DNA from: Prochlorococcus marinus str. NATL2A
GTDB lineage: Bacteria > Cyanobacteriota > Cyanobacteriia > PCC-6307 > Cyanobiaceae
Assembly (NCBI RefSeq): GCF_000012465.1
Contig: NC_007335.2
Location: 1,710,001-1,742,000, forward strand
Reading direction: 5' to 3'
DNA: 32,000 bases
Shown here: piece after piece, positions 561-25,843 of the stretch
Position numbering within the stretch: the stretch's first letter is position 1
How the letters are laid out: every line of letters begins with the position of its first letter
Made by a program: the position numbers and the translations under genes
The notes under the pieces: generated by a model
Told to the model about the DNA's origin: nothing
Seen by the model: the letters and a program-made list of their open reading frames with translations, nothing else
Database searches by the model: none

Positions 561-1739
561 ATGCTACTTACTATTGATTCACTTATAAGTGATGAACTCA
601 TAGATCACACAAAATATACATTATCAGGAAGCGAATCACTATCTTATTATGTAGATAAAACTGTAGGAGTTGAAAGCCTAGATAGATATTATTTAGATTC
701 TAATCAACAAACTAAATATTTAGATACAATTAAAACAATTAACCAAGGTCATAACCAAGAAGAGCAGAATTTTATCAAAGATATTTTTAATAGATTAGAT
801 TTAATTATTGATCTTGATTTCTATGAAATGTCACATAATAATGGTTCTATGCTTGATATCTATCACATAACTTACTCATCACATTTCGAACAAAATGTAA
901 TTGGTCAAGCAATTCAGCAAAAAACTAGCACTGGTGGATGGTGGGATATTTTTTGGAAGGATAGTCCTAATGAAAGAAGCTCAGATAGTAAAGAAAACTT
1001 TAATACAATACTCCACGAAATAGGCCATACACTTGGACTTAGTCATCCTAATGATGATCCTTTTGATAAAAATTTTAATTCCCAAGATACAATAATGTCT
1101 TACAATAAAGGTCCAGGAGATTGGGGACACTGGTTCTCCACAAAGGATATTAATGCATTGATAAAAATATGGGGAAGAGAAAATGATCTTGGTTTTATTG
1201 ACTTTGATGGTGATAGTGTTCAATATAAATTTAAAAAGTCAGAGGACAAAAAATACTTCATAGAAACTGAGATTGGGTTCGAAGATATAACTAACATTTA
1301 TAGTTTAAATTTCACAGATAAAACTATTAATGTAGGAGATGATATTATTGATGTTTTTAATTTATTAAATGATAAAGAAGATGCTACCAGCAAAATTTAC
1401 AGGCTCTATAACGCTTCATTTTCTAGGTTTCCAGATAAAGAAGGATTAAAATATTGGATTAATAAGAATAAGTCAGGTGAAAATACTTTTCGTCAAACTG
1501 CCAATTCTTTTATACTTTCGGATGAATTCACAAAAAAATACGGTAAAGATCCTAGCAACATTGATTACATCAAAAATCTCTATCAAAACGTTCTTAATAG
1601 AGATCCAGACATCATTGGACAATCATATTGGTTAGGTAAATTAAATGAAGGTTTGGAGGATAGAACAGAATTATTGATCGGATTTTCCGAATCTGAAGAA
1701 AATAAAAATATGTTTTCAATCGAAACAAATATTTTTTAA
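561..1739 (+). CDS. Metzincin (serralysin/matrixin-like) zinc metalloprotease with two C-terminal DUF4214-type repeats
   Basis: HEIGHTLGLSHP (an HExxHxxGxxH zinc site, nt ~1014-1049) is followed by a Met-turn-like DTIMSY and then DINALIKIWG. The C-terminus has two DUF4214-like units (IYRLYNASFSRFPDKEGLKYW and IKNLYQNVLNRDPDIIGQSYW). There is no hydrophobic N-terminal signal peptide and no tandem RTX block. Confidence 0.75.
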   Translation: MLLTIDSLISDELIDHTKYTLSGSESLSYYVDKTVGVESLDRYYLDSNQQTKYLDTIKTINQGHNQEEQNFIKDIFNRLDLIIDLDFYEMSHNNGSMLDIYHITYSSHFEQNVIGQAIQQKTSTGGWWDIFWKDSPNERSSDSKENFNTILHEIGHTLGLSHPNDDPFDKNFNSQDTIMSYNKGPGDWGHWFSTKDINALIKIWGRENDLGFIDFDGDSVQYKFKKSEDKKYFIETEIGFEDITNIYSLNFTDKTINVGDDIIDVFNLLNDKEDATSKIYRLYNASFSRFPDKEGLKYWINKNKSGENTFRQTANSFILSDEFTKKYGKDPSNIDYIKNLYQNVLNRDPDIIGQSYWLGKLNEGLEDRTELLIGFSESEENKNMFSIETNIF

Positions 1740-2840: not shown

Positions 2841-5779
2841 ATGAAAATATTAATATAAGTTTAAGAGATATTGAAGGATTTAATTCAATTAGTGACTACA
2901 GTATTCAAGAGCTAAAAAATGATTTAAAGCCTATAAGATATAAACTTGGAATGCCTATTTGTGATACAAGTAATATTCCTAATAAAATAATAGTTATAGT
3001 TTCTGGCGAGGCAAGAGTTGTAAATGGGCAAATCAATAGTTGCGAATTAATTTCCAAACTAGGAGCTCAAGAATTTATTGGGCTAGCATCTCTTATCAAT
3101 GCTCGAGGTTGCGAATTAATTTCCGCAAGTACAGAACTTATAGGCTTATCATTTTCTGATAAATTAATCATCAAACTGTATAAAGAAGAAGAAAGTTTTA
3201 GAGAATGGTGCAACCAAAAAATACACCTTTCGGAAATCAATCAATTAGCCAATCATCTATATAATGATATAGCAGATTCAAATATCTCTATACAAACATT
3301 ATCAGATATTTTATCAAAAAATATTAGAGTTAAAACTTATAAAAATGATGAATTTATTTCTAATAATACAGAAATTAAAAATTATTTAATTAGTGATAAT
3401 GTTAATGATTCTACAATTTTTGATATTTTAGATCAACAAAAAATATCCACTAGAGGTCCATTTCCTGCAAGAATATTTGAATTAAATAAAGCAATTTATG
3501 CAAATATATCTAAACCTAAATCTACAAGTAAAAAGCCGTCAGAAGACAATATAAATTTAAATAAAAGCTTAAAAAGTGAAGACAAGATGCTTGATATAAG
3601 TTCAGAAAAAGTAGGTCAATACAACACAGAAAAGAACATTAAATTAATCAAAGGTCAAGGTGATCTAAGAGAGGCATTAGCTTGTTTGCAAATGCTTGCC
3701 TCAGAAATCAACTTGCCTTATCGTTCAGATTCTATTGAAAAAATTCTCCGAGATGCTTTAAATCGAGGGAAAAAGCCCAATCTTCAACTTCTTGGAGGTA
3801 TTACCTCAATAATGGGGTTGCATTCAACAATAGCTAAGGTACCTAAATCAGAAGCCAGTAGAATACCCTATCCCTCCATAATTGCTTGGAAAAATAGTTT
3901 TGCTCTTGTCAAAGAAACTAATAGTTTATTTCTAGAAATTATTTCACCAAATAAAGGTATTATCCGCTTAGATACTAATAACTTAGATGATAGTTTTAAT
4001 GACGGATTTATTGAACTACTTTTAGTTGAAAAGAATGATCAAACACCAAATATTAAATTTGGATTAAGCTGGCTTTTGCCTGCAATTAATAGGTATCGAG
4101 GAGTACTTTTACAAGTTTTGCTAGCCTCTTTTATTGCTCAACTTTTTGGGCTAGCAAACCCATTATTAATTCAAGTTGTCATTGATAAAGTTATTAGTCA
4201 GAGAAGTCTTGATACTCTTCAAATATTAGGTATCGCATTAATTGTAATCACAGTTTTAGGCGGAGTAATTAGTAGTTTAAGAACTTTTCTATTTAATGAG
4301 ACTACAAATAGAATAGACTCAAGGCTTGGTTCAGAGGTCATTGACCACCTTCTGCGCATACCCCTGGGATATTTCGATAAAAGACCAGTTGGTGAACTTG
4401 GGAGCAGAATTGCAGAACTAGAAAAAATAAGAAACTTTCTTACAGGTCAAGCCCTTACAACAATACTTGATGCTGCATTTTCAGTCATTTACATAATAAT
4501 AATGGCCCTTTACAGTTGGTTGTTAACCATAGTGGCTCTAATAGTTGTTCCAATTCAAATATTTATAACAATTATTGGTGCACCATTAATAAGAAGACAA
4601 ATAAGAGAAGTTGCTCAAAGAAACGCTAAAACCCAAAGTCATTTAGTCGAAATATTAACCGGTATACAAACCGTAAAAGCGCAAAACATAGAGAATGTCA
4701 GTCGCTGGAAGTGGCAAGAATTGTATGGAAGTTATATATCGAAGTCATTCCAAAAAACAATAACAGGTACAAGTTTAAATGAAATAAGTCAGGTTCTACA
4801 ACAAATATCTCAACTTCTTGTGTTATGGATTGGAGCAGGATTAGTACTAAATGGAAAGTTAACGTTAGGCCAACTTATCGCATTTAGAATTATATCTGGA
4901 TATGTAACTCAACCTCTTTTACGATTAAGTACAATATGGCAAAACATACAAGAACTAAAAGTCTCCTTTGAGAGATTGGCAGACATCATAGATACGCCTG
5001 AGGAATCTTCAGAAGTTGATAAAGCAAAAATTCCACTACCTAGCTTGAAAGGATTAATAGAATTTAAAAATGTAGAGTTTAAATTCAATCAAAACAGTCC
5101 TAATGTACTTAATAACATTAATCTCACAATAAAACCAGGTCAATTTGTAGGTATTGTCGGCCAAAGTGGTAGTGGAAAAAGTACACTTATGAAATTATTA
5201 CCCAGACTATATAAACCTAATGAAGGTAAAATACTAATTGATGGTTACGACATTAATAAAGTTGAACTATATTCTCTCAGGAGACAAATAGGTATTGTTC
5301 CACAAGAACCTTTATTATTTGCAGGTAATATTAGTAGCAATATATCTCTAATTGATCCAGAAGCACCCAGTGATGAGATTGTGAGAGTAGCTAAAATTTC
5401 GAATGCTCACGATTTTATTATGAGTCTTTCAGAAGGATATAGTACAGATATAGGTGAACGAGGAGCGGGATTATCTGGAGGCCAAAAACAAAGATTAGCT
5501 ATAGCAAGAACTTTATTAAGTAATCCGAAATTGTTAATACTTGATGAAGCTACAAGTGCTTTAGATTATCAGACTGAGAGAAAAGTATGTGAAGGTTTAA
5601 GAGAAGCTTGTAAAGAATCGACTGTATTTTTCATTACTCATAGATTAAACACAGTAAAAAATGCTGATGTCATCGTTATGCTTCACGATGGTTGTATTAG
5701 TGAAGTTGGTACGCATGATAAGCTAATGGAGCTTAAAGGTAGATATTTTGCTCTATATCGTCAACAGGACGCTTCATAA
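2837..5779 (+). CDS. Type I secretion ABC transporter (HlyB-like) with an N-terminal cyclic-nucleotide-binding domain and a catalytically degenerate C39-like domain
   Basis: N-terminal cNMP-binding-like fold (KIIVIVSGEARVV...FIGLASL...). A low-complexity Lys/Asn linker follows, then a C39-like segment (nt ~3650-3920) and a multi-helix TMD. The NBD has Walker A GQSGSGKST, signature LSGGQKQR, Walker B LLILDEATSALD and H-loop ITHRL. Confidence 0.9.
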   Translation: MNENINISLRDIEGFNSISDYSIQELKNDLKPIRYKLGMPICDTSNIPNKIIVIVSGEARVVNGQINSCELISKLGAQEFIGLASLINARGCELISASTELIGLSFSDKLIIKLYKEEESFREWCNQKIHLSEINQLANHLYNDIADSNISIQTLSDILSKNIRVKTYKNDEFISNNTEIKNYLISDNVNDSTIFDILDQQKISTRGPFPARIFELNKAIYANISKPKSTSKKPSEDNINLNKSLKSEDKMLDISSEKVGQYNTEKNIKLIKGQGDLREALACLQMLASEINLPYRSDSIEKILRDALNRGKKPNLQLLGGITSIMGLHSTIAKVPKSEASRIPYPSIIAWKNSFALVKETNSLFLEIISPNKGIIRLDTNNLDDSFNDGFIELLLVEKNDQTPNIKFGLSWLLPAINRYRGVLLQVLLASFIAQLFGLANPLLIQVVIDKVISQRSLDTLQILGIALIVITVLGGVISSLRTFLFNETTNRIDSRLGSEVIDHLLRIPLGYFDKRPVGELGSRIAELEKIRNFLTGQALTTILDAAFSVIYIIIMALYSWLLTIVALIVVPIQIFITIIGAPLIRRQIREVAQRNAKTQSHLVEILTGIQTVKAQNIENVSRWKWQELYGSYISKSFQKTITGTSLNEISQVLQQISQLLVLWIGAGLVLNGKLTLGQLIAFRIISGYVTQPLLRLSTIWQNIQELKVSFERLADIIDTPEESSEVDKAKIPLPSLKGLIEFKNVEFKFNQNSPNVLNNINLTIKPGQFVGIVGQSGSGKSTLMKLLPRLYKPNEGKILIDGYDINKVELYSLRRQIGIVPQEPLLFAGNISSNISLIDPEAPSDEIVRVAKISNAHDFIMSLSEGYSTDIGERGAGLSGGQKQRLAIARTLLSNPKLLILDEATSALDYQTERKVCEGLREACKESTVFFITHRLNTVKNADVIVMLHDGCISEVGTHDKLMELKGRYFALYRQQDAS

Positions 5780-5781
5780 AG

Positions 5782-6915
5782 ATGAGCAGCCTAAACAAAA
5801 AATTTTACTCATCGGTAATGAAAATAAAACACGTAGTTCCAAAATTAAAAAAAAAGTTTGGAACCCAAAAAATAATTTTTAAAAATTTTGAAATAAAAAA
5901 ATTATTAAATAATGTCGTAAACGAAAATAGATATTATAAAAAAACAAAAAAAATATTTAATGAGATAAAAATTCAAAATATTCAAGATAATATCGAAAGG
6001 TTATTCAAGAGTGATACTAATAAGATTGTATTAAAACAATCTAAATATTGGGCAAGAGCGATTACTTGGGTTCTTTTAGGAGGTACAGCATTTTCAATAG
6101 GATGGTTAGCCTTTGCCAAAACCGAGGAAATAGCAATTGTAATGGGAAATCTAGAACCGATTGGAGGAGTAGTCGATGTACAGATGCCACTTCAGGGGAT
6201 TGCACGGGAAATTCTAACCGAAGAAGGTTCTAGGGTAAAGAAAGGAGACGTTCTCATAAGGCTAGATACTGAAATAACAAAGGCACGTTTAGATTATCTT
6301 CTCGAAAATTTGAAATCTAAAAATTTAATACTTAATAAGCTAAAACAACTATTAGATGAAGGAGCTGTTTCAGAATTGCAATATCTTGAACAAAAAATCA
6401 GTGTAGAGGAACTAATGAGTGAAATAAAAGCAAATCAAGTGCAATTTAAATATCAAGAAATTAAAGCACCCATATCTGGCACAGTTTTTGATTTAAAACC
6501 TAAAAGCCCAGGATTCGTTGCCCAAACTAGTGAACCAGTACTTAAAATAGTTCCAGCCAATAATTTAATCGCAAAAGTTGAAATTGATAGTCGATCAATA
6601 GGATACATAAAAATTGGTAAAGCGGCAGACATAAGCATTGATACATTTCCTTCAACAGATTTTGGTGTAATTAAAGGAACAGTAACTAGTATTGGTTCAG
6701 ATGCATTGCCACCAGATCCATCGCAAGGTAAAGGATATAGATTTCCGGCAAAAATAAAATTAGATGAACAATTTTTAAAAGTTAAGACTGGAAAAAAGCT
6801 TGCTATTCAAGCAGGAATGGGTTTAACAGCAAATATCAAATTAAGAAAGTTAACTTATCTTCAACTACTTCTTAGTAATTTTAGTGACAAGGCCGAATCA
6901 CTAAATGCTATTTAA
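5782..6915 (+). CDS. HlyD-family membrane fusion protein (T1SS periplasmic adaptor)
   Basis: Starts 2 nt after the ABC gene stop. It has one N-terminal TM helix (ITWVLLGGTAFSIGWLAF) and a lipoyl/barrel-sandwich-like motif (VDVQMPLQGIAREILTEEGSRVKKGDVLIRLD). A coiled-coil middle and a beta-barrel C-terminus (GTVTSIGSDALPP...GMGLTANIK) follow. Confidence 0.85.
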   Translation: MSSLNKKFYSSVMKIKHVVPKLKKKFGTQKIIFKNFEIKKLLNNVVNENRYYKKTKKIFNEIKIQNIQDNIERLFKSDTNKIVLKQSKYWARAITWVLLGGTAFSIGWLAFAKTEEIAIVMGNLEPIGGVVDVQMPLQGIAREILTEEGSRVKKGDVLIRLDTEITKARLDYLLENLKSKNLILNKLKQLLDEGAVSELQYLEQKISVEELMSEIKANQVQFKYQEIKAPISGTVFDLKPKSPGFVAQTSEPVLKIVPANNLIAKVEIDSRSIGYIKIGKAADISIDTFPSTDFGVIKGTVTSIGSDALPPDPSQGKGYRFPAKIKLDEQFLKVKTGKKLAIQAGMGLTANIKLRKLTYLQLLLSNFSDKAESLNAI

Positions 6916-7268
6916 TTCATAGGTGCAGATCAATCTCATAGAGAAATATATGATATATATAAATACAAAAATCTAATAAAAATGCTGCTTATAAAAATAT
7001 TATTTAACTAGCTAAACCAATCAACAAAAAAATAATCGAAAAAGAAGAGATATAATTTATAAAAATGAAAAATTAAATGAAAAATATATAAGAAATAAAA
7101 TTACTCAGGATTAGAAATTTATCTACGATAATTAAACAATCGATAAAACATAAACTTACAATAAAAAGAAATACTAAAAAGAAAATCAGATTAAAGAATG
7201 CAACTTTGATTTCTTAAAGGTTTACTAGTCATTAATTGATAATGACTCATGAATAGTAGTTATAAGGC

Positions 7269-7302
7269 AAAAAAAAACCTCTGGTTTCCCAGAGGCTTTT
7301 TG
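7269..7302. terminator. Bidirectional rho-independent terminator
   Basis: An A9 run (7269-7277) precedes a perfect 7-bp stem, CCTCTGG (7278-7284) / CCAGAGG (7289-7295), with loop TTTC, followed by CTTTTT. It lies ~20 nt downstream of the TAA of the minus-strand 606-aa ORF. It is also the first strong hairpin after the plus-strand hlyD-like gene. Confidence 0.65.
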
Positions 7303-7321
7303 GATAAGTCTTTAATTAAAC

Positions 7322-9142
7322 TTAGATATGGAAAATACCAGCTGCATGAGTAACAGCTACCTTAGTGATAACAGTATCATTAAGTTGGAAGAACTGGTCA
7401 TCTGAGTTATTGGTGTTAGCACCTTCAGAGAAGATGAATGAATCACCACCTGTAGTGTAAGCAACAACATCACCTGCAGCATGTGTACCAGCAGCTGCAG
7501 CAGCTAGGAACTCTAGTCCTGTAGCAGTACCTGTGTTCTTGGTGTAAACACCTTCAGCAGCACCAGTACCAACTGTGTAACCGGTAATAGTACCATCACC
7601 GTCGGTTGCGGTTCCTCCTGGAACAAGAATATTAGCCTCAGTATTTAATGCATATCCGGTAATTATTATCGGTGCACTAGCACTACCAAGGGTCTGACCT
7701 GCAGTAGCTGTGATCGACAATGAAGCTCCAGTTTGATCAATTGTCGTGATTGAAGAAGCAGTAAAGTTAGCTCCAAAAGTGGCTGTAGATGCTGCAGTCG
7801 TAAAATCGAGAATCTCAATACCGCTGATTCCTACAATGTCGGCGTCAACAATGGTTCCTTGATTTGTGATTGAGAGAATGTCACCAGTACCACCTTGACC
7901 ATCAAGAGCTGGGTTAGCAACGCTGAAGGCATCAAAAACAGCATCAGTCACTCTGAAAGTATCGTTACCTGTACCAGCATTAACTGTATCCCCACCAGCG
8001 ACTGTAATGAAGTCTGCAGCAGTACCAGCTGTAATTACGTCAATTTGTGGTGTACCAATGATGTCATTGGCCGTTGTTGGAAGTCCAGTAATTCGAGCAC
8101 CGAATGAGCCAGTAAATCCAGAGAGATCAACATACTCGAAGCCAGTAACGGTTCCAGTTGGTACTGAACCGTCTATGCTGACGATTTGATTCGTTGTCGA
8201 GGTTAAATCAACATTCAAACCACCAAGGATAGCTGCAAAATTAAGATCCAATGTATCTGTTCCGGCACCAGCTGCAATTACGTCACCAGAATTTGCCCAC
8301 ATAAATGTGTCATTACCATCTGAACCTGTATATGTGGCAGCAGCAGTTGAAGATCTTGTAGTCGTCTGTAGAACAGAACCACCTACTCCCATGCCAGATG
8401 CATCAATTACTGTTACATCTTCTGCAGTAGAAATAATTTCAACATCATTTGTACCAGTTAAATTGACCGCCATGGTAGCTCCAGTTGCAGTCATAGACAA
8501 GCCACTAAGGTCCAAGTCAACTTGAAGAGCTGTTTCTGGCTTGATAACAAGTGTTTCAACGTCAGCCATTGTGATCTTCAAATCATCATTTGCGGATGCT
8601 GCTGAAACATTAACTGTTTGAGATTCAGTACCACTGACAGTTGCCAACTTAATTTCTAGTTCTGAAGCAGTACCGTCAGTAGTCGTGTAATCAACCGTGA
8701 CACCAGAAGCCAAACTAGATAGTTCAAGTTTTTCGGATGAAATATCAACGACATTTATCTGAGACAAGCCTGAAGCCTTAGACATATCCAAAACGTACTC
8801 AGTACCATGATCAGCCAAACTTATATCGAAGTTTTCAATACCTGTCATGTTTGGAGTAACGCTAGCATCTGTCGCAGCATCATAGGAAGCTGAAACTGTG
8901 TCTGTATTTGCAGTACCTACAACAGAAATTGTTGTAGCAGCCTCACCATCATCGAAATCATTTAAGCCAAAGGTTAAGTCAGTAATGACTCCTGAATAAC
9001 CTGAGAAATCAAATACAGCACTATTAGTTGCAGTTAAAGTATCAGATGCATTTATACGGAATGAAGACAATGCATTACCACCTGTAACGTTGACTGCTGT
9101 AGCAGCGTTCAAACCGTTAGCAGCATTACCATCTGAATCCAT
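7322..9142 (-). CDS. C-terminal 606-aa segment of the giant Thr/Gly/Ala/Asp-rich repeat surface protein (candidate T1SS substrate)
   Basis: ATG at 9142. Isolated RTX-like nonapeptides are present (AGAGTDTLD, GTGNDTFRV, SDGNDTFMW). The module grammar matches the upstream ORF. I spotted no Cys and no signal peptide. It is in the same frame as 9155..12268. Confidence 0.7.
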   Translation of the reverse strand: MDSDGNAANGLNAATAVNVTGGNALSSFRINASDTLTATNSAVFDFSGYSGVITDLTFGLNDFDDGEAATTISVVGTANTDTVSASYDAATDASVTPNMTGIENFDISLADHGTEYVLDMSKASGLSQINVVDISSEKLELSSLASGVTVDYTTTDGTASELEIKLATVSGTESQTVNVSAASANDDLKITMADVETLVIKPETALQVDLDLSGLSMTATGATMAVNLTGTNDVEIISTAEDVTVIDASGMGVGGSVLQTTTRSSTAAATYTGSDGNDTFMWANSGDVIAAGAGTDTLDLNFAAILGGLNVDLTSTTNQIVSIDGSVPTGTVTGFEYVDLSGFTGSFGARITGLPTTANDIIGTPQIDVITAGTAADFITVAGGDTVNAGTGNDTFRVTDAVFDAFSVANPALDGQGGTGDILSITNQGTIVDADIVGISGIEILDFTTAASTATFGANFTASSITTIDQTGASLSITATAGQTLGSASAPIIITGYALNTEANILVPGGTATDGDGTITGYTVGTGAAEGVYTKNTGTATGLEFLAAAAAGTHAAGDVVAYTTGGDSFIFSEGANTNNSDDQFFQLNDTVITKVAVTHAAGIFHI

Positions 9143-9154
9143 TGATACATCAGC

Positions 9155-9157
9155 CTA
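9155..9157 (-). other. In-frame TAG separating the two halves of the giant repeat-protein reading frame
   Basis: The minus strand reads ...ATT ATC TCA GGT TAG GCT GAT GTA TCA ATG GAT TCA GAT.... 12268-7322+1 = 4947 = 3 x 1649, so both ORFs and the 12-nt spacer share one frame. Confidence 0.9.
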
Positions 9158-12100
9158 ACCTGAGATAATCAGGTTAATAGTGTCAACATCTGAGACATTA
9201 TCAGTGATCGCATCTCCATCACCAAGGGTAAGGTTAAGAACATCAGTTCCTCCATTACCGTTGACAGTGATATCGGCATTAGTGGTTTCTCCGATAGTGA
9301 AGGTGTCATTTTTAGATGAACCAGTAATGTTATGAGCTCTGTCACCTTTAAGGTCAAAGGTAGTAGCTATAGCAGTACCTGCAGTAGCAGTTAGTATTCC
9401 AAAATAACCAGTCGCATCAACAGCTGTTGTATCAGTATCAAGAGTATTAAGCGTCATTGTCTGTCCAGCATCAGCAGCTGAACCGACTACAACAATCTTT
9501 GCTGCATTAAGTGAGTCAACATCAAGACTTGTGTTGGCATTTGAGGTGTCAGTGTCGTCAGTGACGTCAAATGTAACTGTCTCAATTCCAGTTGCTTTTA
9601 CTTCAATAGTGTTTGTATTTGGAGTAGTTCCATCTGTGTCATTCAGGTTGAACGTAAGTGAATCTGAAGTTCCAGAGGAATCAGCAAGACTGATATCGAA
9701 TAAACCATCTACATCACCATCGGTATTGTTGAGACCTGCTCCAACTTTTACTCCAGCAGCCAGATTAGTGATTGTTGTTGAAGTTGTGTTTGTTGTAACA
9801 GCAATTTCACTGGCTCCAGTAACTTTGGAAGCGTCAAAAACAAATACTCCGCCATTAGTTAGGTTCAGAGTTTCTACATTAGAGACATTTAGAGCACCGG
9901 TCGTAGCAGTTAAACCCGTTACAGTTGCAGAAAGTGTATCTGTGCCTGCTCCTCCATCAACGGTGTCTGCATTGTTTAGATTAGAACCGAAGACTAATGA
10001 ATCAGCACCTGAACCAGTAGTAATCGTTTGATTAGCAGCTACTCCATCGAGTTGCAAGTCTCCAGTAAAAGTAGAAGCATCAACAGTGACAAGTTTTGAA
10101 GCAGTTATTGTGCCATCAATATCAAGAGAAGAGTCACCAGTGATCTTCAAAGTAGTCAGGGCGTTTGTACCACCGTCAGTAAGAGTAGATACTACATAAT
10201 CAACTGTGTTAGCTGATAAGCCTGAGGTATTAATAGTAAGTGTCTCAATGTCACCAGCTGAAATTTGCTCAATTGTTTGTGTTAAAGCCTTGTCACCAGA
10301 TGGTGAAGTTAGGTTTACGGTTAGCGAATCTGCAGTTCCTGATGGATCTTTCAAAGAAGCAGTTACTTGAGCCCCTGAACTAATTTCTACAGTTTGATCA
10401 GTTAAATTTGTGAATGAAACGTTTGAGTATCCAACTTCTGCAACAGCAATATTACCGGTACCAGTAATACTGTCGAAATTGATTGTGTCTCCGGTGTCAG
10501 ATGTTCTGGTAATAAAAACACCATCACCTGTTCCGTCTACGTCGACAGCTGTGGCAGTAAATCCTGTCAAGGCGTTGATAGATGCAGCTAGTTCAGCAGC
10601 AACTTCAGCGTCAGTATTGGTGCCCGTAGCGGAAGCAATTGATGTTGATACACCGTTTAGAGAGTATGAATAATCATCGCCAGCTGCGTTCAAAGAACCT
10701 GTCACATGAACTGTTTTTGTGTGCCCAGCTGCTTTTAGAGTTGTAAATGAACCAACTCCATCTGCATTAACTACAGCCGAATCGTTAGTTGGATTGACTT
10801 CTAAAACCTCAACGTTACTTACATTTGCGAATGTTGTACTTGTAAGGGTGGCATTACCCAAATCCAAGCTTAAAGTATCTGTTCCGGCGCCTCCATCAAC
10901 AACATCAGCACTTGTAAAGCCAGTAGAAAACTCAACGAAATCATCACCTGATCCACCAGTTACTGAAGCTATATCTCCTGTATTGAGCTGTATAGAAAGG
11001 TTACCGGTGAATGCAGATGCATCTACAGTTCCATCAATAGCTGTTGTTGTGGCATTGTCTGCAAAATCTACATCACCAACGATTTGAAGATTCGCAGAGC
11101 CAGTTACGTTTAATGCTGTAGCGTTATCGATTACGACATCAGTCAACTGACTTTGAGTCAGAGTTGAGTTGATTGTCAAAGTTTCGATAGAAGCTGCTGT
11201 GAAGGTACCGCCAGAAAGATTACTCACATCAAGAGTAATTGCGTCACTTGAGCCAGATACAGCAGTTGAAGTATGAGTAAGGGTTAAGTCAGCCGCACCA
11301 TTTCTCAACTCTGCATTTGTCAACACAGTCATTCCTTGGAAAACAGTGTCTCCATCAGATCCAGAAGAACTCAAACCAACTGTTGAAGGTGCACCGAGCA
11401 GAGTTGTATCTACGGTTGTAACACCAGTAGGTCCATCAAAGTTAGTTAGTAAAACCTTTTCAATGCCAGTTGCTTGAACACCGCTAAGAGTTGTAGCTGC
11501 ATCACCAGAAACAGCGATGTTTAAAGTATCTACACCTGATCCACCATCAATTACGTCACCAGCTTGGATGGTCGTACCAGTAGCACCGCCAACAATAACT
11601 CCATTAATCTTGTCGTTACCAGCACCACCAGTGACTGAATCCTGATTAGTTGTGAGAGTTAATGTCTTAGATGCAGTAGCAGTTGTTGGCACCCCATTTG
11701 AAGTAATGGTTGCGACACTTGCAGCTATACCTGCAGCAGTTGAAGCTGTATCTTTATCTATTGTTGATAGATAATTTCTTGCAGCGATGATGTTGTTACC
11801 AGCAGCAAAAGTAGAATCAGCTGCTAGACCATCATTTAGAGGCTGATAAGAAAGTATTCCAGCTGTAGTCTCTTTAATTTTGGCTGTATAAGCTACTGCT
11901 GCTTCAGTTCTATTACTTAAGGCTGCTTTATCATCTGCGCTTCCAGAATTATTTTGAGCAGCCCAAATAAGATCATTTGCAATCTCAGCTAATTGCAAAT
12001 TACCTAAACGAATTTGCTGAGACCAATAAGTCAAGCCAGCTACATCGGCATCTCTATCGAATAGATTTTTATAAATCTGGTTTACTTGTGACTCGATGGA

Positions 12101-12268
12101 GAGAGTTCCGTACTCGCTTGTGAATTCGGGCTGAGCATACATATTTGCTGCAAATGCCGCGGTAGTGATCCCTCTTTCCGTCCAGTAATCAAGACCAGTG
12201 GGATCCGCAGCGCGTCCGAAGTAAGCAACGTATAGCTCTTGAAGTTGGGTACTAGTCGCGTTGGTCAT
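9155..12268 (-). CDS. N-terminal 1037-aa segment of the giant repeat surface protein; N-terminal DUF4214 repeats followed by repeat modules with GGxGxDxL calcium-binding-type nonapeptides
   Basis: ATG at 12268. DUF4214-like LQELYVAYFGRAADPTGLDYW and QIYKNLFDRDADVAGLTYW. RTX-like GGAGNDKIN, GGSGVDTLN, GGSGDDFVE, GGAGTDTLS (twice) and GNGGTDVLN. No signal peptide, and I spotted no Cys. C/G-ending codons (ACC AAC GCG TAC TTC CGC CCC) are unlike the neighbouring genes. Confidence 0.75.
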   Translation of the reverse strand: MTNATSTQLQELYVAYFGRAADPTGLDYWTERGITTAAFAANMYAQPEFTSEYGTLSIESQVNQIYKNLFDRDADVAGLTYWSQQIRLGNLQLAEIANDLIWAAQNNSGSADDKAALSNRTEAAVAYTAKIKETTAGILSYQPLNDGLAADSTFAAGNNIIAARNYLSTIDKDTASTAAGIAASVATITSNGVPTTATASKTLTLTTNQDSVTGGAGNDKINGVIVGGATGTTIQAGDVIDGGSGVDTLNIAVSGDAATTLSGVQATGIEKVLLTNFDGPTGVTTVDTTLLGAPSTVGLSSSGSDGDTVFQGMTVLTNAELRNGAADLTLTHTSTAVSGSSDAITLDVSNLSGGTFTAASIETLTINSTLTQSQLTDVVIDNATALNVTGSANLQIVGDVDFADNATTTAIDGTVDASAFTGNLSIQLNTGDIASVTGGSGDDFVEFSTGFTSADVVDGGAGTDTLSLDLGNATLTSTTFANVSNVEVLEVNPTNDSAVVNADGVGSFTTLKAAGHTKTVHVTGSLNAAGDDYSYSLNGVSTSIASATGTNTDAEVAAELAASINALTGFTATAVDVDGTGDGVFITRTSDTGDTINFDSITGTGNIAVAEVGYSNVSFTNLTDQTVEISSGAQVTASLKDPSGTADSLTVNLTSPSGDKALTQTIEQISAGDIETLTINTSGLSANTVDYVVSTLTDGGTNALTTLKITGDSSLDIDGTITASKLVTVDASTFTGDLQLDGVAANQTITTGSGADSLVFGSNLNNADTVDGGAGTDTLSATVTGLTATTGALNVSNVETLNLTNGGVFVFDASKVTGASEIAVTTNTTSTTITNLAAGVKVGAGLNNTDGDVDGLFDISLADSSGTSDSLTFNLNDTDGTTPNTNTIEVKATGIETVTFDVTDDTDTSNANTSLDVDSLNAAKIVVVGSAADAGQTMTLNTLDTDTTAVDATGYFGILTATAGTAIATTFDLKGDRAHNITGSSKNDTFTIGETTNADITVNGNGGTDVLNLTLGDGDAITDNVSDVDTINLIISG

Positions 12269-12304
12269 GGGGGTGATGAAAATTAGTTATTCGTAAAGGG
12301 ATCT

Positions 12305-12401
12305 CCGCAGCTAGACTGCGGCTATCTGTTTTCGGTTGGGGCACTATATAGCCCAACCAGCAGAATCACCGGAACTATACGGTGTATTGCTCATATATCA
12401 A
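12305..12401 (-). promoter_or_regulatory. Candidate promoter plus structured 5' leader of the giant-protein gene (three hairpins)
   Basis: Hairpins: CCGCAG-ctaga-CTGCGG (12305-12321); GGTTGGG...CCCAACC (12334-12358); CACCG-gaactata-CGGTG (12367-12384). On the minus strand, TTGATA (12396-12401), a 16-nt spacer and TATAGT (12374-12379) form a sigma70-like promoter. That promoter would place two of the hairpins in a ~100-nt leader. Confidence 0.35.
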
Positions 12402-12855
12402 GGCTAATTAGATACAAAAACAAGGAATCCCAGACATTTTAGTTCTCGGTCTAAGTTGAATTTCGTGCAATTAAATTGCTCAATCAAAAATAATTTTTTT
12501 TGGCTAAAGGGATTTAAGGAATAGAAAAACCGTTCGTATTACTGAGTTCTCGAGAATATGAATGTTCTGATCCCCCACAAAATCTAAAAAATTAAGAAAA
12601 GCTTTATTCATGCGTTAATCCTATTGAACCTCTAAAGACTGAACCAGCTAACAAAGTGCACACCAACAAAAGATATTGAATCAAAGAGTAAAATTAAAGG
12701 TGAAAAACAGACATAATCACATCAAAAATAGTTAGTTCATCAAGTTTCAATAAATTTATTTCATTAGAAAACTTGTAAAGTTGAAATACATAAAATAATC
12801 TCAAGACAAACAAAAAAACATGAAATCACTTGTTATTAAAAGTGTGGAGTACTAG

Positions 12856-13823: not shown

Positions 13824-16800
13824 CTATTCATTAATTTCTAGACTATTAATCATATTAAATAAACGAAATCCCAGTCTAGAAAACTTAAAATTATTAATAA
13901 ATTTTTGTTTATTATATTGTAGAATTTCAGCTTCTTTTTTATTTTTTGATCTCTTGATCCAATTAATAATTCCATTGGCAATTTCATCAGAAGTAAACCC
14001 AGGTAGGTATTCAATGCAATCAGAAATATCATTAAATATTGGATTGGGAGTAACTAAAGTTGGTTTTAAAGCCGCTAATGCTTGTCTCACTGAAGCGCTT
14101 GAAGATTCGTTGGTATGTTGATAAGGAAAAACAATCAAATCTTGCGAAGACAAATTTTTTACAGTTTGTTCATCGGCCATATATTCAGTGTTTATGTTAA
14201 CTATATCTCTAATATTCAACTTATGAACTAAATCTACCAACTCATTGTAAACATAAGTAAAGGAATCATTATAGATTGCCGTAAACAAATTTAATTCTAA
14301 ATATATGTTTCTATCAGATAAAATTTTGACTGCCTTAATCAATTCATTGAAACCCTTATTAGGCAAACAAAAACCATATGAAGCTATTCTTAATTTATGT
14401 TTATGACTAAATAAGTTGGCTCTAGAAAAGTCTTTAGATAATTCATGATTAATGGGAACATATTTTATGCCATGCGGAAATAAACTTACATTTTCCTTCA
14501 GGCCTAAAAGCTTTAAGCGATTCAGATCTGTTAATGTATGGACTAATATTCTGCTACATTTAAATAGAGAAGGAATTAAGTTCTCTATACGTTTTTTATT
14601 ATTCCCAATTGGATCAAGAGTCGAATGCATAAATAAGATTATATTGATTTTATGTGATGAAACTTTATCTATGAAACTAGATAATTCAGAGAAATTAAAA
14701 AATCCATAATTAAATTGTATTACTAAAGAAGTTATCTGGGCATTAATAACGTCATTAAATAATTGATTTAAATCTTGCGATATATCATTATCTAATTCCC
14801 AACACTGAATTGTTTCGTAAGTTGTACTAATTTTTTGTGATGAAATTGGAGTAAATATTGTTACTCTTGAGAAAATATTATCTATTAAATTTTTTGAGTA
14901 AGATGCAATACCACATCTAGTTCCCCAGGATGTAATCCATCCTATACGTGGATGAATACTTTGCATATTATTCAAAATATTTTGTGAAAAATCTAGATTC
15001 TTAAGTGCCACATTTTTCCAGGTAAATTTTTCAATATCTGATTTAGCTTTAGAAATTTTAGACCTTAAACTTAACTTATTTGAATGAAATAATTCTTTCA
15101 TAAGTTCCGACAAGTGAGAACAAGATGGCTCTGCCCAATAAGACATGCCTAAATCAAAATGTGTTTTTGCTGATAAAAACTCATAATCAATTAGCCAGCT
15201 ATTTTCATGATTACAGAAATCAGTTTGACCTCCCCAAGCTGTAGTTATAACAGGCAAATCTAGAAACATTGCCTCAGCTATGGGTAAACCAAATCCTTCT
15301 CCCCGGCTTGGTGCTACTAATGCATCTGAGCTAAAATATAATGCTTTTAACTGTGAATCACTTAAATCCTCGTTGATAATCATTACATCTGGATATTTAG
15401 AATTTATAGATTTCTCCTTCTTTAGGATTTGATCTACATTATTATGGGAATTCTTGAATGTTTTTATAATTAAAGTAACGTCATCATAAGAATTAAAAGC
15501 CTGGCCATAAGCTCTTAATAAGATATCAATTCCTTTACGTGGAAAGCATGAAGATACGTGGAGAAACCTAAATTTATTGGAGTTTAGCGAAAAATTCCTA
15601 TCACTTTCTAAATCCTCTAAATGATCTATACCAAGGCCACAAACACTAATGGGAATTCGCACGCCATTATCTATTAAAATCTTTTTTACTTGAGAAGACA
15701 TTACTGAAACACCCTGCAAATAAGTATTAAATTCAACAACCCATTCCTGAGGAAATTCAGATTCCTCCCATCCATATGAGTGAAGAAGATTTATTATTGA
15801 TTGCAAGTCCGCTACTCGCGGAGGATATAAATTTCTGCTAGATACTATTGAAGATTCAGTCGATTCCAAAGATTGTTTATATAGTTTATATATAGAAGGA
15901 TATTGCTTAATAAATTTGATATTAGGAACATAATCACCAGGTCCCTCCGTATTATGTATCGTTACATTTTCTATGATTTTAGTAAGAGATTGAACAAAAG
16001 ATCTATTTAAAATTGCGAGGCTATAATTTGAATCAAATGGACCTTCCACTCTCCAAGAAAAGGGAGAATCTAAAGGAATCAAAGAACGTGATATAAAGTC
16101 TGTTTCTAAATTGACTAAATCAATTGAAGATGCAATTTGGTCTGCGAGATTTTGACTTAAATTAGCCTGAAGGTTCTTATCATTTTTTATTTTACTTAAT
16201 AAAATATTATAGCTATTATTATTTTTATAATTTATATATTCCCAATTACAATTAGAATAATCTTTCGGATTGTCATTAATAATATTTTCACAAGCTTCTA
16301 AGACTTTTCTACTGGTGTCGAACCAAGAAAATTTCTGTGCTTGGTAACTTGCGTTTTTTATTAAAGAATTTCTAAAAACAATATCAGTTAACGCTTTCTG
16401 AATAAGATTCTTAATAGAATCAGTGTCATATGGGTCAAACATTGCATTCGCATCGCCAATAATTTCTGGAATACTTGTACAGTTTGATGCTATTGAAGGA
16501 GCTCCACATGACATTGCCTCTAGAATAGGCAGACCGAAACCCTCATGGAAAGATGGAAAAACAAATAAAGCGCAGTTTTGATATAAATAAACTAAATCTT
16601 TATCTGAAACATAGCCTAAAAGAATTACACTTTTTTTATTGATAGAGAACTCTTTTATCCAACCATGAATTAAATCAGTTTCTGAAGGTAATAACTTTCC
16701 AGAAAAAACAAGTTTGTATTTTAAGAGAACCTCAAAAGGAAGTTTTGAATATGCCTTTAACAAACCTTTAATATTTTTTCTAGGATCGCTTGCCCCAGAA

Positions 16801-17483
16801 TATAAAATATAATGATCAAGGGTATCTAAAACACTGTGTGTTGATTTATCAGTCTCAACTTTCTTTATATTAAATATATCCCTATTACAAGCAGAGGAAA
16901 TATTATAAACTTTATCTTCCGCATAACCTAAATACTTAATTGCTTCATTTTTAGATGATTTCGAAATAGAAAGTAATCCATCTAATGTTTTTAACTTATC
17001 AATTTTATTTAAATAAAATTCTTTAAAAGCTGGATTAGAATTTAAGTATAGATCTGGATGTAATAACGGAATTAAATCATAGAAGATCGATAATACTGGG
17101 GCTGCAAGAATATCGTTATCAAATTCTGTAAAGCAATTGTCTGTATACCCTTCAAAAAAACTAGTTAAAAGAATAACATCAGGAAAAACACGATTGAATG
17201 TATATGATCTTAAATATCTTGCAATATTTAAAGCATTATCATTTTTAGAAATATAATCTAGAGGTGCTAAAGAATACCAATTTATATAATTAATATTACT
17301 CCGACTTAGGTACTTTCTAAAATCAGAACTAATATCTAAAAGACAAGCATTTCCAATCAGAACATATTCATTCTCTGGAAAATTATCTAAAATATTCGAG
17401 ATTATTTCATAAGAATATCTTCCTATACCTCTTTTTCTACTTCCTAAACTTTGAACACCTGAAAGGTCAATAGCAATTCGCAT
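13824..17483 (-). CDS. Three-domain GT4-family glycosyltransferase (1219 aa)
   Basis: Two clear GT4 EX7E-type motifs (EGFGLPILEAMSCGAPSIASNCTSIPEIIG and GEGFGLPIAEAMFLDLPVITTAWGGQTDF). A third GT-B-like C-terminal domain follows (RIGWITSWGTRCGIASY...NESSSASVRQALAALKPTLVT). Confidence 0.85.
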   Translation of the reverse strand: MRIAIDLSGVQSLGSRKRGIGRYSYEIISNILDNFPENEYVLIGNACLLDISSDFRKYLSRSNINYINWYSLAPLDYISKNDNALNIARYLRSYTFNRVFPDVILLTSFFEGYTDNCFTEFDNDILAAPVLSIFYDLIPLLHPDLYLNSNPAFKEFYLNKIDKLKTLDGLLSISKSSKNEAIKYLGYAEDKVYNISSACNRDIFNIKKVETDKSTHSVLDTLDHYILYSGASDPRKNIKGLLKAYSKLPFEVLLKYKLVFSGKLLPSETDLIHGWIKEFSINKKSVILLGYVSDKDLVYLYQNCALFVFPSFHEGFGLPILEAMSCGAPSIASNCTSIPEIIGDANAMFDPYDTDSIKNLIQKALTDIVFRNSLIKNASYQAQKFSWFDTSRKVLEACENIINDNPKDYSNCNWEYINYKNNNSYNILLSKIKNDKNLQANLSQNLADQIASSIDLVNLETDFISRSLIPLDSPFSWRVEGPFDSNYSLAILNRSFVQSLTKIIENVTIHNTEGPGDYVPNIKFIKQYPSIYKLYKQSLESTESSIVSSRNLYPPRVADLQSIINLLHSYGWEESEFPQEWVVEFNTYLQGVSVMSSQVKKILIDNGVRIPISVCGLGIDHLEDLESDRNFSLNSNKFRFLHVSSCFPRKGIDILLRAYGQAFNSYDDVTLIIKTFKNSHNNVDQILKKEKSINSKYPDVMIINEDLSDSQLKALYFSSDALVAPSRGEGFGLPIAEAMFLDLPVITTAWGGQTDFCNHENSWLIDYEFLSAKTHFDLGMSYWAEPSCSHLSELMKELFHSNKLSLRSKISKAKSDIEKFTWKNVALKNLDFSQNILNNMQSIHPRIGWITSWGTRCGIASYSKNLIDNIFSRVTIFTPISSQKISTTYETIQCWELDNDISQDLNQLFNDVINAQITSLVIQFNYGFFNFSELSSFIDKVSSHKINIILFMHSTLDPIGNNKKRIENLIPSLFKCSRILVHTLTDLNRLKLLGLKENVSLFPHGIKYVPINHELSKDFSRANLFSHKHKLRIASYGFCLPNKGFNELIKAVKILSDRNIYLELNLFTAIYNDSFTYVYNELVDLVHKLNIRDIVNINTEYMADEQTVKNLSSQDLIVFPYQHTNESSSASVRQALAALKPTLVTPNPIFNDISDCIEYLPGFTSDEIANGIINWIKRSKNKKEAEILQYNKQKFINNFKFSRLGFRLFNMINSLEINE

Positions 17484-25015: not shown

Positions 25016-25843
25016 CTAATTAATCAAATCCTCAAATTCTTTCAATTCTATTAATAAGTTATAAATATCACCGAAGTTGTTTTCATGAAGGATTAACGAT
25101 TTATTTACAGTATGAGTTGCTTTTATTGGTTTGAGATATTTTTCTGGGGAAATTTTATTAAGAATTAGTATATATTTAATTAGCTCGTATTTAGATATAG
25201 TATTGGTCCCATATACAGATATTGGAGGGAATGAATCAAAATTATTAATTATTTTAAAAGCTATTTCTGCCCATTTTAAAGCAGTTATACCATTCCAAAA
25301 ATGATTAACATAACCATATATTAAATTAGATGATTTGATCCTAGATAATGTCCATGAATATAATGATTTATTTGACTGATCAGAAGCTATTATGGAAGCT
25401 CTTATAACTCTTATGAGATCAATATGAATTTGATAAGTTTTTCTGGAATATAAACATGCTTTACTCTTACCATATAGACTATCACAATCATAATTTGAAT
25501 CTAGCCCATAAGGAGCTAAGTTTGGATTTCCCTTGTAAACACAATCTGTACAGGGATGTATTACTCTAAAGTTATTTTCAAGCAGTAATTCTGGTAATAA
25601 ATAATTGATTTTAAAGTAATCTATTTTTGTGTTTACATTTGTATAATTAGGCATCTTTTGAGGAATAGATCCAGCACAATTTATAACAAAGTCAGCGTTT
25701 TCTAATGAACTTATAAATTCGTTTTTATTTTCTAAATTATATTTTACCGGAAATATTAAATGAATGTCATTACCAAACATAAGAAAATAATTGAATACAA
25801 CCTTGCCCAACATTCCAGAGGGTCCAATTATTGCAATTTTCAT
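25016..25843 (-). CDS. RmlD-like / SDR-family nucleotide-sugar reductase
   Basis: Rossmann motif MKIAIIGPSGMLGKVV, then ADFVINCAGS and YGKSK (YxxxK). It lies 4 nt downstream of the dehydratase gene in the same orientation. Confidence 0.6.
   Translation of the reverse strand: MKIAIIGPSGMLGKVVFNYFLMFGNDIHLIFPVKYNLENKNEFISSLENADFVINCAGSIPQKMPNYTNVNTKIDYFKINYLLPELLLENNFRVIHPCTDCVYKGNPNLAPYGLDSNYDCDSLYGKSKACLYSRKTYQIHIDLIRVIRASIIASDQSNKSLYSWTLSRIKSSNLIYGYVNHFWNGITALKWAEIAFKIINNFDSFPPISVYGTNTISKYELIKYILILNKISPEKYLKPIKATHTVNKSLILHENNFGDIYNLLIELKEFEDLIN

Follow-up and report, generated by a model that had tools for sequence, protein, structure and literature searches.

The S-layer protein RsaA of Caulobacter crescentus (PDB 5N8P, 6P5T, and 6Z7P) is held on the lipopolysaccharide by its N-terminal end, continues in calcium-binding, RTX-like β-solenoid repeats, and ends in a C-terminal type I secretion signal, and its gene adjoins transporter and surface-sugar genes. 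To our knowledge, no S-layer has been described for Prochlorococcus. In the 32,000-nucleotide stretch of the Prochlorococcus marinus NATL2A genome that we analysed (hereafter, the window), a giant surface-protein gene, interrupted by a stop codon, encodes a protein for which each of these roles is predicted, next to genes of the same kinds. An AlphaFold model of its 606-residue C-terminal part (pLDDT 86.4, pTM 0.81) had RsaA as its best structural match; the top six Foldseek matches in the PDB were all RsaA (E = 1.7e-4 to 8e-4, probability 0.90-1.00), with TM-scores of only 0.17-0.31 and an rmsd of 14-17 Å. RsaA was also matched by sequence profile, at E = 4.5e-7 and 8.9e-7. The two proteins differ in that their identity is 13-15%, the N-terminal domain in NATL2A is a DUF4214 domain, and the NATL2A protein is 60% longer.

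A second system of this kind is Psh (PP_1794) of Pseudomonas putida, an RTX-DUF4214 "phage shield" that is exported by a neighbouring type I system and is reported to bind O-antigen (bioRxiv 10.64898/2026.09.02.748959). It is from this preprint that we presume an anchoring role for the DUF4214 domain in NATL2A. The Psh system is off in the common laboratory strain owing to a premature stop, a frameshift in the transporter gene aprD (bioRxiv 10.64898/2026.09.02.748959). Psh and the NATL2A protein both combine DUF4214 with an RTX or RTX-like block in one type I cargo, and both systems have been hit by a premature stop. Psh is much smaller, however, and has its RTX region at the N-terminus and its DUF4214 domain at the C-terminus, the reverse of the NATL2A order. 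The lesions also differ, with the transporter gene being affected in P. putida and the cargo gene, by a nonsense codon, in NATL2A, where the transporter genes are intact.

The NATL2A protein shares with CyaA, HlyA, and the serralysins a predicted Gly/Asp-rich repeat block near the C-terminus, adjacent HlyB- and HlyD-type genes, and the lack of an evident N-terminal signal peptide, as judged in our case by eye. A profile of the NATL2A protein family matched the RTX domain of CyaA at E = 7.2e-15 (profile positions 1311-1436) and the serralysin β-roll at E = 5e-6. Unlike those proteins, the NATL2A protein has degenerate repeats and no toxin or enzyme domain. The Pfam HemolysinCabind model scored 17.9 bits in the 1,037-residue part, under the cut-off of 23 bits, and gave no match at E <= 0.01 in the 606-residue part. 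PF00353 has been precomputed for many of the homologues. There are five GGxGxD motifs, all of them before the stop.

Organization of the locus

The window matches the NATL2A genome exactly, and the two reading frames of the giant gene are PMN2A_1227 (1,037 aa) and PMN2A_1226 (606 aa). The 1,037-residue part is 100% identical to P0001 (AAZ58717.1). The source annotation names the two halves "DUF4214 domain-containing protein" and "hypothetical protein" and marks neither as a pseudogene. Neither a paper on either locus tag nor expression or protein data turned up in the searchable literature, and literature searches on a NATL2A pseudogene or nonsense mutation and on a Prochlorococcus S-layer returned nothing specific. 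The features discussed here are collected in Table 1; the giant gene, for which an earlier note on this DNA had given no strand, lies on the minus strand.

Table 1. Positions in the window of the interrupted gene, its parts and flanking signals, and the neighbouring secretion and protease genes
Feature	Coordinates	Strand	Basis
Codons 1-1037, PMN2A_1227; DUF4214 and three complete repeat modules	9158..12268	-	ORF, 100% identity, module search
DUF4214 domain, residues 40-97; presumed cell-surface glycan anchor	11978..12151	-	PF13946, E = 3.8e-14, 52.9 bits against a cut-off of 23.2
TAG, codon 1038; nonsense mutation of a Ser codon	9155..9157	-	Translation, homologue codons
Four-codon "spacer" GCT GAT GTA TCA (A D V S)	9143..9154	-	Intact relative has A D V T here
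ATG of the 606-aa ORF, 12 nt past the TAG	9142..9140	-	Sequence
Codons 1043-1648 and TAA, PMN2A_1226; all-β solenoid with RTX-type block and conserved C-terminus	7322..9142	-	ORF, AlphaFold, Foldseek
RTX-like Ca-binding repeat block, about residues 1313-1438 of the read-through protein	7955..8332 (approximate, from profile positions)	-	Family profile
Last ~60 residues, conserved motif ..G.D.Y/F.F.EGA.T...DD...L......T.V..TH.A...HI; presumed type I secretion signal region	7325..7504	-	C-terminal alignment of NATL2A, SAG, and P0002-P0005
Sigma-70-like promoter match TTGATA-16-TATAGT, ~105 nt 5' of the ATG; candidate for the whole unit	12374..12401	-	10/12 consensus match only
Intrinsic-terminator-like hairpin, 13-bp stem then T-run, 21 nt past the TAA	7272..7301	-	Sequence
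HlyB-type type I secretion ABC transporter with C39-like domain; intact, 980 aa	2837..5779	+	TIGR01846, E = 4.7e-212; ABC_membrane, ABC_tran, Peptidase_C39
HlyD-type membrane-fusion protein, convergent with the giant gene	5782..6915	+	TIGR01843, E = 8.1e-42; HlyD_3
Metzincin-like protease with C-terminal DUF4214; second DUF4214 protein of the locus	561..1739	+	PF13946, E = 3.6e-35; Reprolysin_5 and Peptidase_M10 below cut-offs

The giant gene and the HlyB- and HlyD-type genes sit in a region of cell-surface sugar and glycosyltransferase genes. The HlyB-type transporter scored 706 bits against TIGR01846, just below the cut-off of 725.55, and has the same length in the close relative described below. 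The promoter-like site falls within a tract that is 99% identical to the locus of that relative. Between the two reading frames we found no promoter-like or terminator-like site on the minus strand. The metzincin-like protein and the giant protein are 33% identical in their DUF4214 domains.

The internal TAG and the uninterrupted homologues

Read on the minus strand, 12268..7322 translates to 1,649 codons with one internal TAG and a terminal TAA. The junction reads ...ATT ATC TCA GGT TAG GCT GAT GTA TCA ATG GAT..., and no second stop or frameshift was found in the 606 codons 3' of the TAG. In the ORF listing, the 1,037-residue frame occupies 9155..12268 (-) and the 606-residue frame 7322..9142 (-). 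The earlier note had described a single 4,947-nt frame with one in-frame TAG and a 12-nt spacer, and both its coordinates and its codons were exact on translation. Two reading frames would be in register by chance in one case out of three. The reading as one gene goes beyond chance, since uninterrupted proteins of 1,646-1,657 residues align over the whole read-through sequence, including the junction.

The closest of these homologues is in the draft genome GCA_003214715.1, which is fully syntenic with the window at about 90% DNA identity and has one gene for a product of 1,646 residues (P0122) with TCT (Ser) at the position of the TAG (L004). The gene order in this relative is as in the window: methyltransferase, glycosyltransferase, epimerase, the giant gene, HlyD, HlyB, a PpiC-like protein, a 60-residue ORF, and the metzincin. 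A Tara Oceans contig (L008) with the same neighbours and gene order carries a 1,648-residue gene with TCG (Ser) at the site. Thus a sense codon is found at 9155-9157 in both of the loci that share these neighbours, a comparison that the earlier note had proposed, and its idea of a single ancestral gene with an in-frame TAG is borne out by two uninterrupted orthologues. Given the TCG allele of the Tara contig, one C>A change suffices to produce TAG. From the TCT of the closest relative two changes are needed, and the one-step route therefore rests on the more distant allele.

Ten full-length homologues are continuous through the junction. Among them P0002-P0004 (1,648-1,657 aa) span it at 100% query coverage, as P0122 also spans it. 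The residue aligned to the TAG is Ser in the SAG, P0002-P0005, and P0007 and Ala in P0006 and L005; none of the homologues examined has a stop at this site. A scan of 185,579 species genomes with the family alignment recovered no further Prochlorococcus loci, its only matches being in a Patescibacteria contig and, at 50% identity, in a Luminiphilus MAG, and a junction-spanning query of 350 residues had one distant match (40% identity) in the JGI metagenomes. The four codons between the TAG and the next ATG are, judging from their alignment, ordinary coding sequence of the ancestral gene.

The internal repeats had been counted in the earlier note as three modules before the stop and two after it. 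A regular-expression search recovered the three upstream copies in strict form, at residues 415-490, 729-802, and 950-1032. Past the stop it found only the pieces AGAGTD (1334), GTGND (1432), and ISGIEILD (1481); the downstream copies are looser, and the count of two is approximate.

We consider it very likely that these sequences represent one secreted surface-protein gene that has been inactivated in NATL2A by a point mutation, with translation halting at codon 1038. The interruption is a commonplace nonsense mutation and mechanistically nothing new. A recent nonsense mutation was among the four explanations offered in the earlier note and is the one that the comparison supports. As in an ordinary nonsense-split pseudogene, both parts align in order with a single intact orthologue, a sense codon occupies the site in relatives, and a recoding signal is absent from what appears to be a single transcription unit. 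Unlike such a pseudogene, the downstream part in NATL2A shows no decay at all, so that either the event is very young or the downstream part is still used.

Alternative readings of the interruption

The TAG could instead mark a functional split, in which ribosomes re-initiate 12 nt 3' of the stop and the resulting RTX/C-terminal fragment of 606 residues is exported by the adjacent type I system and retained by selection as a separate protein. The ATG at that distance is in frame and lies on the same transcription unit as the upstream part, and the 606-codon frame that follows is fully open. The fragment would hold both the RTX block and the conserved C-terminus, and for HlyA it is known that C-terminal fragments bearing the signal can be secreted autonomously. 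The dN/dS ratio 3' of the stop, calculated against the close relative, is 0.215, within the 0.12-0.28 of neighbouring intact genes. Polarised amino acid changes in this part are equally numerous in NATL2A and in the relative, 25 on each branch, with no acceleration in NATL2A. The low dN/dS and the equal branches fit the recent mutation that we prefer, but would be expected just as much if selection still acted on a 606-residue product translated by itself. The split is nevertheless improbable, as the gene is continuous in the only close relative and in all of the more distant homologues, and the fragment would be without DUF4214. In the intact relative the supposed start is a Met like any other within the protein, and more distant homologues have Leu or Thr in its place; it thus did not evolve as a start. 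No Shine-Dalgarno sequence precedes the 606-residue frame, but none precedes the authentic start at 12268 either, which makes this test uninformative. An evolved split with coupled re-initiation, which the earlier note had also envisaged, is contradicted by the intact relatives and the internal Met.

We regard it as very improbable that the TAG is usefully decoded, by a suppressor, near-cognate, or phage-borne tRNA, to give a 1,648-residue protein. The frame is kept perfectly on both sides of the TAG, and low-level read-through of UAG by near-cognate tRNAs occurs in all bacteria. However, two other genes in the window, 13824..17483 (-) and 25016..25843 (-), also terminate in TAG. The first of these encodes a glycosyltransferase of 1,219 residues, the same length as its orthologue in the relative, and TAG is here a normal stop and not a reassigned codon. 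No stable RNA structure flanks the TAG (the minimum free energy of a 121-nt segment was -26.1 kcal/mol against a shuffle mean of -26.5, z = 0.11), no tRNA gene occurs in the 32-kb window, and the stop is conserved in no homologue. These observations speak against the stop-codon read-through that had been listed as an explanation.

A reversible, phase-variable switch of an exposed antigen, the sense in which an "off" variant might be understood, is extremely unlikely. The surface protein is encoded in a hypervariable cell-surface region, and exchange of alleles is evident from a recombination tract within the gene. However, the lesion consists of one substituted base in sequence that is not repetitive, and the site has no invertible element, homopolymer, or short tandem repeat that could make it reversible. 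No full-length revertant of the NATL2A allele was found in the 90% cluster, and no revertant among about 100 contigs of the strain.

An error of sequencing or assembly hiding a sense codon, which might be suspected for a gene whose protein has internal repeats, in a reference genome that was assembled long ago, has a negligible probability, given that the TAG and its flanks are identical over 5-9 kb in a separate NCBI assembly (GCA_047285905.1) and in the Logan assemblies of SRR31053296 and SRR2532007 (L001-L003), that the exact 1,037-residue product is recorded on 100 contigs (112 index blocks), and that inspection of the sequence found no tandem DNA repeat at the site. The assemblies with the TAG are 100% identical to the window and so represent the same strain; they exclude a sequencing error and are silent on an origin in the sea or in culture. 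One of the Logan contigs (L003) spans exactly 12345..7329, just the two reading frames. It was tempting to take this contig as a full-length transcript, an idea that we set aside because the run type is not given.

Expected consequences for the cell surface

In the explanation that we prefer, a nonsense mutation in one ancestral gene, the intact product would be a large surface protein for type I export, with an N-terminal DUF4214 domain, RTX-like β-solenoid repeats, a C-terminal RTX block, and a conserved tail. A point mutation in the NATL2A lineage or culture would have changed a Ser codon, most simply TCG, to TAG. The locus would still be one transcription unit, bounded by the promoter-like site near 12400 and the terminator at about 7290, and translation would stop at codon 1038. 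The 1,037-residue product would keep the presumed glycan-anchoring end and lose the C-terminal secretion determinants, and for lack of the latter it should stay in the cytoplasm. Any product of 606 residues, made by re-initiation at the pre-existing internal Met, could be exported and would be without an anchor. With either fragment the surface-displayed protein would be lost. Surface display is thus most likely abolished, since the stop parts the presumed anchor end from the secretion end. A functional remark to this effect in the earlier note agrees with the domain assignments, which place DUF4214 in the 1,037-residue part and the RTX-type block and conserved C-terminus in the 606-residue part. 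We infer the roles of anchor and export signal by analogy with RsaA and with the Psh preprint, and we likewise infer the fate of the fragments.

The mutation could have been favoured as an escape from phage that use this protein as a receptor; relaxed selection in culture is another possible reason. In work by Avrani et al. (2011), as summarised in PMC5520035, phage-resistance mutations in cell-surface genes of genomic islands were selected experimentally in MED4-type Prochlorococcus strains and adsorption phenotypes were measured. The NATL2A mutation resembles those mutations in being of the loss type and in affecting a surface-related gene in a variable cell-surface region, and differs in that the link of its TAG to phage is hypothetical.

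The locus unites DUF4214, RTX-like solenoids, type I secretion, and cell-surface sugar genes in a logic like that of RsaA and Psh, and gives Prochlorococcus a concrete candidate for a surface layer made of protein. It is conceivable, although we think it rather unlikely, that wild low-light Prochlorococcus of the NATL type wear an RsaA-like, DUF4214-anchored, type I-exported coat that serves as a phage receptor or shield and of which NATL2A is a natural knock-out. If so, the envelope, phage host range, and grazing behaviour of NATL2A would differ from those of wild cells. In a lesser variant, the C-terminal fragment of 606 residues may still be made by re-initiation and released to the medium. 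Work on cyanophages and co-cultures uses NATL2A as a standard host. Should the protein be a major surface component, this strain would lack a feature of its wild relatives, which would matter for the interpretation of adsorption, host-range, and vesicle or exoproteome data.

In the annotation, PMN2A_1227 and PMN2A_1226 should become a single entry that is marked as a disrupted gene. Kept as separate entries, they inflate the count of hypothetical proteins and mislead orthologue tables.

The G+C content of the giant gene is 41%, compared with about 30% in the window. We rejected this difference as evidence of a foreign origin, as the third-position value (GC3 = 0.25) is like that of the neighbouring genes (0.18-0.29). 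The excess lies in codon positions 1 and 2 (0.51) and results from the Gly/Ala/Thr/Asp-rich composition of the protein.

One reading frame and its intact orthologues

The giant gene (12268..7322, minus strand) spans 1,649 codons, of which one is an internal stop and the last is TAA, and its junction reads ATT ATC TCA GGT TAG GCT GAT GTA TCA ATG GAT. An earlier note had described a single gene interrupted by one in-frame stop, and its coordinates, codons and arithmetic agree with our translation, the junction sequence and the ORF list. Its module grammar, proposed for both sides of the stop, is strict in three copies before it (residues 415-490, 729-802, and 950-1032) but beyond the stop can be made out only as degenerate copies. 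Both products are known from Prochlorococcus marinus NATL2A: that of 1,037 aa matches PMN2A_1227 with 100% identity, and that of 606 aa is PMN2A_1226. Neither database name ("DUF4214 domain-containing protein" and "hypothetical protein") signals a disrupted gene.

Features of the giant gene and its flanks
Feature	Position	Strand	Basis or remark
Promoter-like site	12401..12374	-	sequence match
1,037-aa ORF	9155..12268	-	ORF list
Internal TAG	9157..9155	-	junction sequence
Next in-frame ATG after TAG	9142..9140	-	junction sequence
606-aa ORF	7322..9142	-	ORF list
Strong terminator hairpin	7301..7272	-	just past TAA

An intact orthologue from the draft genome GCA_003214715.1, P0122 (1,646 aa), falls in the same 90% cluster as the 1,037-aa protein. 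At its locus, L004, the genes follow the order of the window (acetyltransferase, methyltransferase, 1,219-aa glycosyltransferase, epimerase, giant gene, HlyD, HlyB, PpiC-like, 60-aa ORF, and metzincin-DUF4214), with 79-95% DNA identity outside one tract. In a codon alignment, TCT (Ser) of the P0122 gene aligns with the NATL2A TAG, and the sole length difference between the two genes is a two-codon indel far upstream. The 1,648-aa gene of a Tara Oceans contig with the same neighbours (L008) carries TCG (Ser) at this site, a codon that one C>A substitution would turn into TAG. These two Ser codons are the sense codons at 9155-9157 that the earlier note had suggested looking for in orthologous loci. 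Ten full-length homologues (1,517-1,673 aa) pass through the junction without a break, the residue aligned with TAG being Ser in six that were inspected and Ala in the homologue P0006 and in the Luminiphilus locus L005. The "start" Met of the 606-aa ORF corresponds to a Met inside the protein of the intact relative, and homologues further removed have Leu or Thr there, so its origin is not that of a start codon. The syntenic TCT orthologue, the TCG contig and the ten homologues bear out the reading of the two ORFs as one gene.

The L005 homologue (6001-9591 of a Luminiphilus MAG contig, CAJJBO010000035.1) is marine gammaproteobacterial and shares 50% identity with residues 9-1207 of the family query. 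The N- or C-termini of several metagenomic homologues differ. That the family spans phyla suggests horizontal exchange among marine bacteria.

The giant gene has a G+C content of 41%, compared with about 30% across the window. Foreign DNA was rejected as the cause, since GC3 is neighbour-like (0.25) and GC1 and GC2 are about 0.51; amino-acid composition, acting through codon positions 1 and 2, explains the difference.

Origin and age of the internal stop

The interruption is a standard nonsense-split gene, and among the explanations offered earlier it is the recent nonsense mutation that survives. In comparison with the intact relative, the part upstream of the stop has a dN/dS of 0.079 and the part downstream one of 0.215, the latter falling within the range for intact neighbouring genes (0.12-0.28). 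When amino-acid differences between NATL2A and the relative were polarised with four more distant homologues, the derived differences downstream of the stop numbered 25 in each. Neutral drift of the downstream part over the whole branch would be expected to give roughly 4-5 times more changes on the NATL2A side, and the binomial interval on 25/50 gives a ratio of at most about 1.8. By a rough calculation, neutral evolution of this part could have lasted for no more than about a fifth of the NATL2A branch; this estimate is qualified by outgroups that are only ~53% identical and by the giant gene being a recombination mosaic. No second stop or frameshift was found in the 606 codons. Given the equal branch counts, the low dN/dS and the absence of further lesions downstream, either the mutation is recent or the downstream part is still under selection; the rate data fit both equally.

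The promoter region and first ~770 codons form a 2.7-kb tract (~12657..9958, minus strand) that is 97-99.7% identical to L004, as against 79-95% in the rest of the 19-kb syntenic region. Between the giant gene and its relative, dS is about 0.03 in the first 618 codons and 0.27-0.56 from codon 619 on. The tract, which ends about 800 nt upstream of TAG, looks like the result of a recent homologous recombination (allele exchange).

Stop-codon read-through, another of the options raised earlier, finds no evidence of recoding in the other TAG stops, the RNA fold or a tRNA search in the window. TAG is the normal stop of two other window genes, one of them encoding a glycosyltransferase equal in length to its orthologue; a 121-nt stretch spanning the internal stop folds no better than shuffles (z = 0.11), and there is no tRNA gene within the window. 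Because a promoter-like site and a terminator lie outside the two ORFs and none was found between them on the minus strand, the ORFs probably form one transcription unit. The authentic start of the giant gene has no Shine-Dalgarno sequence, so the lack of one before the internal ATG is uninformative.

Sequencing or assembly error, which the earlier note had also considered, is excluded, since the same TAG recurs within 5-9 kb of identical sequence in GCA_047285905.1 and the Logan assemblies of SRR31053296 and SRR2532007, and the exact truncated 1,037-aa protein is recorded on 100 contigs, with 112 index blocks listing it. The 90%-identity cluster of this protein holds no full-length version of the NATL2A allele. 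Being 100% identical to the window, the TAG-carrying assemblies are the same strain, and an origin of the mutation in the ocean or in culture would be compatible with them. One of their loci, L003 (Logan SRR2532007_413), is a whole 5,017-nt contig matching window 7329-12345 and holding just the two ORFs; it extends from 77 nt before the first ATG to within 7 nt of the last base of the TAA (7322). Were the run RNA-seq, the contig would represent one abundant transcript that crosses the TAG.

The encoded protein and its secretion locus

The giant protein has an N-terminal DUF4214 domain (E = 3.8e-14). The family profile matches the CyaA RTX block (E = 7e-15), serralysin beta-rolls, and RsaA, the S-layer protein of Caulobacter crescentus (E about 5e-7 to 9e-7); its strongest RTX match maps to the 606-aa part, and Pfam RTX repeats score below cut-off. 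The AlphaFold model of the 606-aa part is a confident all-beta solenoid (pLDDT 86.4, pTM 0.81) for which RsaA takes each of the top six places among PDB matches (E 1.7e-4 to 8e-4, probability 0.90-1.00), although with low TM-scores (0.17-0.31), a fold similarity that is significant yet loose. Aligned with its closest homologues, the protein shows conservation over its last ~60 residues. Intact genes for an HlyB-type ABC transporter and an HlyD-type adaptor are convergent with the giant gene, and the surrounding epimerase/dehydratase-type and glycosyltransferase genes belong to cell-surface sugar metabolism.

In Pseudomonas putida, the RTX-DUF4214 protein Psh (PP_1794) is reported to leave the cell through a type I system encoded next to it, to bind O-antigen and to shield cells against phages (2026 preprint, bioRxiv 10.64898/2026.09.02.748959). 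The giant protein has the same DUF4214-plus-RTX combination, although in reversed domain order. Our most likely working model, drawn by analogy with Psh and RsaA, is that DUF4214 would hold the protein on surface glycan, the solenoid would make up the exposed part, and export would be driven by the RTX block and tail at the C-terminus. The protein probably works in the manner of surface proteins of the RsaA type or of RTX type I secretion; domain content is what links it to these families and to Psh.

On this model the 1,037-aa fragment would keep the anchor without the export determinants, and the 606-aa fragment, if made by re-initiation, would be exportable and not anchored; either way surface display would be lost. 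Loss of a phage receptor is a plausible reason for the TAG allele, by analogy with Prochlorococcus genomic islands, where surface-gene mutations give resistance according to the summary in PMC5520035. Relaxed selection in culture is also plausible. The interruption involves no new mechanism; its use lies in correcting the annotation and in the caution it calls for with the model strain NATL2A.

Other genes of the window

A 392-aa metzincin-like protease is encoded at 561-1739 (+), its HExxH-type matches all being below Pfam cut-offs. Its C-terminal DUF4214 (E = 3.6e-35) is 33% identical to the N-terminal one of the giant protein. The protease may be another cargo of the type I secretion locus, or a partner of it anchored at the surface. 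The HlyB-type transporter (2837-5779, +) has a ~270-residue N-terminal extension before its C39-like domain, and the first 4 nt of its gene are shared with the end of a PpiC-type rotamase-like gene (2094-2840, +) with weak resemblance to TIGR04500 "peptide maturation system" proteins. Between the metzincin and PpiC-like genes lies a 60-aa ORF (1832-2014, +; MANVTIDGKEYDVDSL...), conserved at L004 17809-17991 with 7 of 60 residues differing, which probably encodes a real small protein.

Two tandem paralogues, 19519-21771 (+) and 22125-24854 (+), carry near-identical 34-residue TPR-like repeats in variable number. The two share 93% identity over their C-terminal 440 residues (95.5% in DNA), which points to a recent duplication or ongoing gene conversion.
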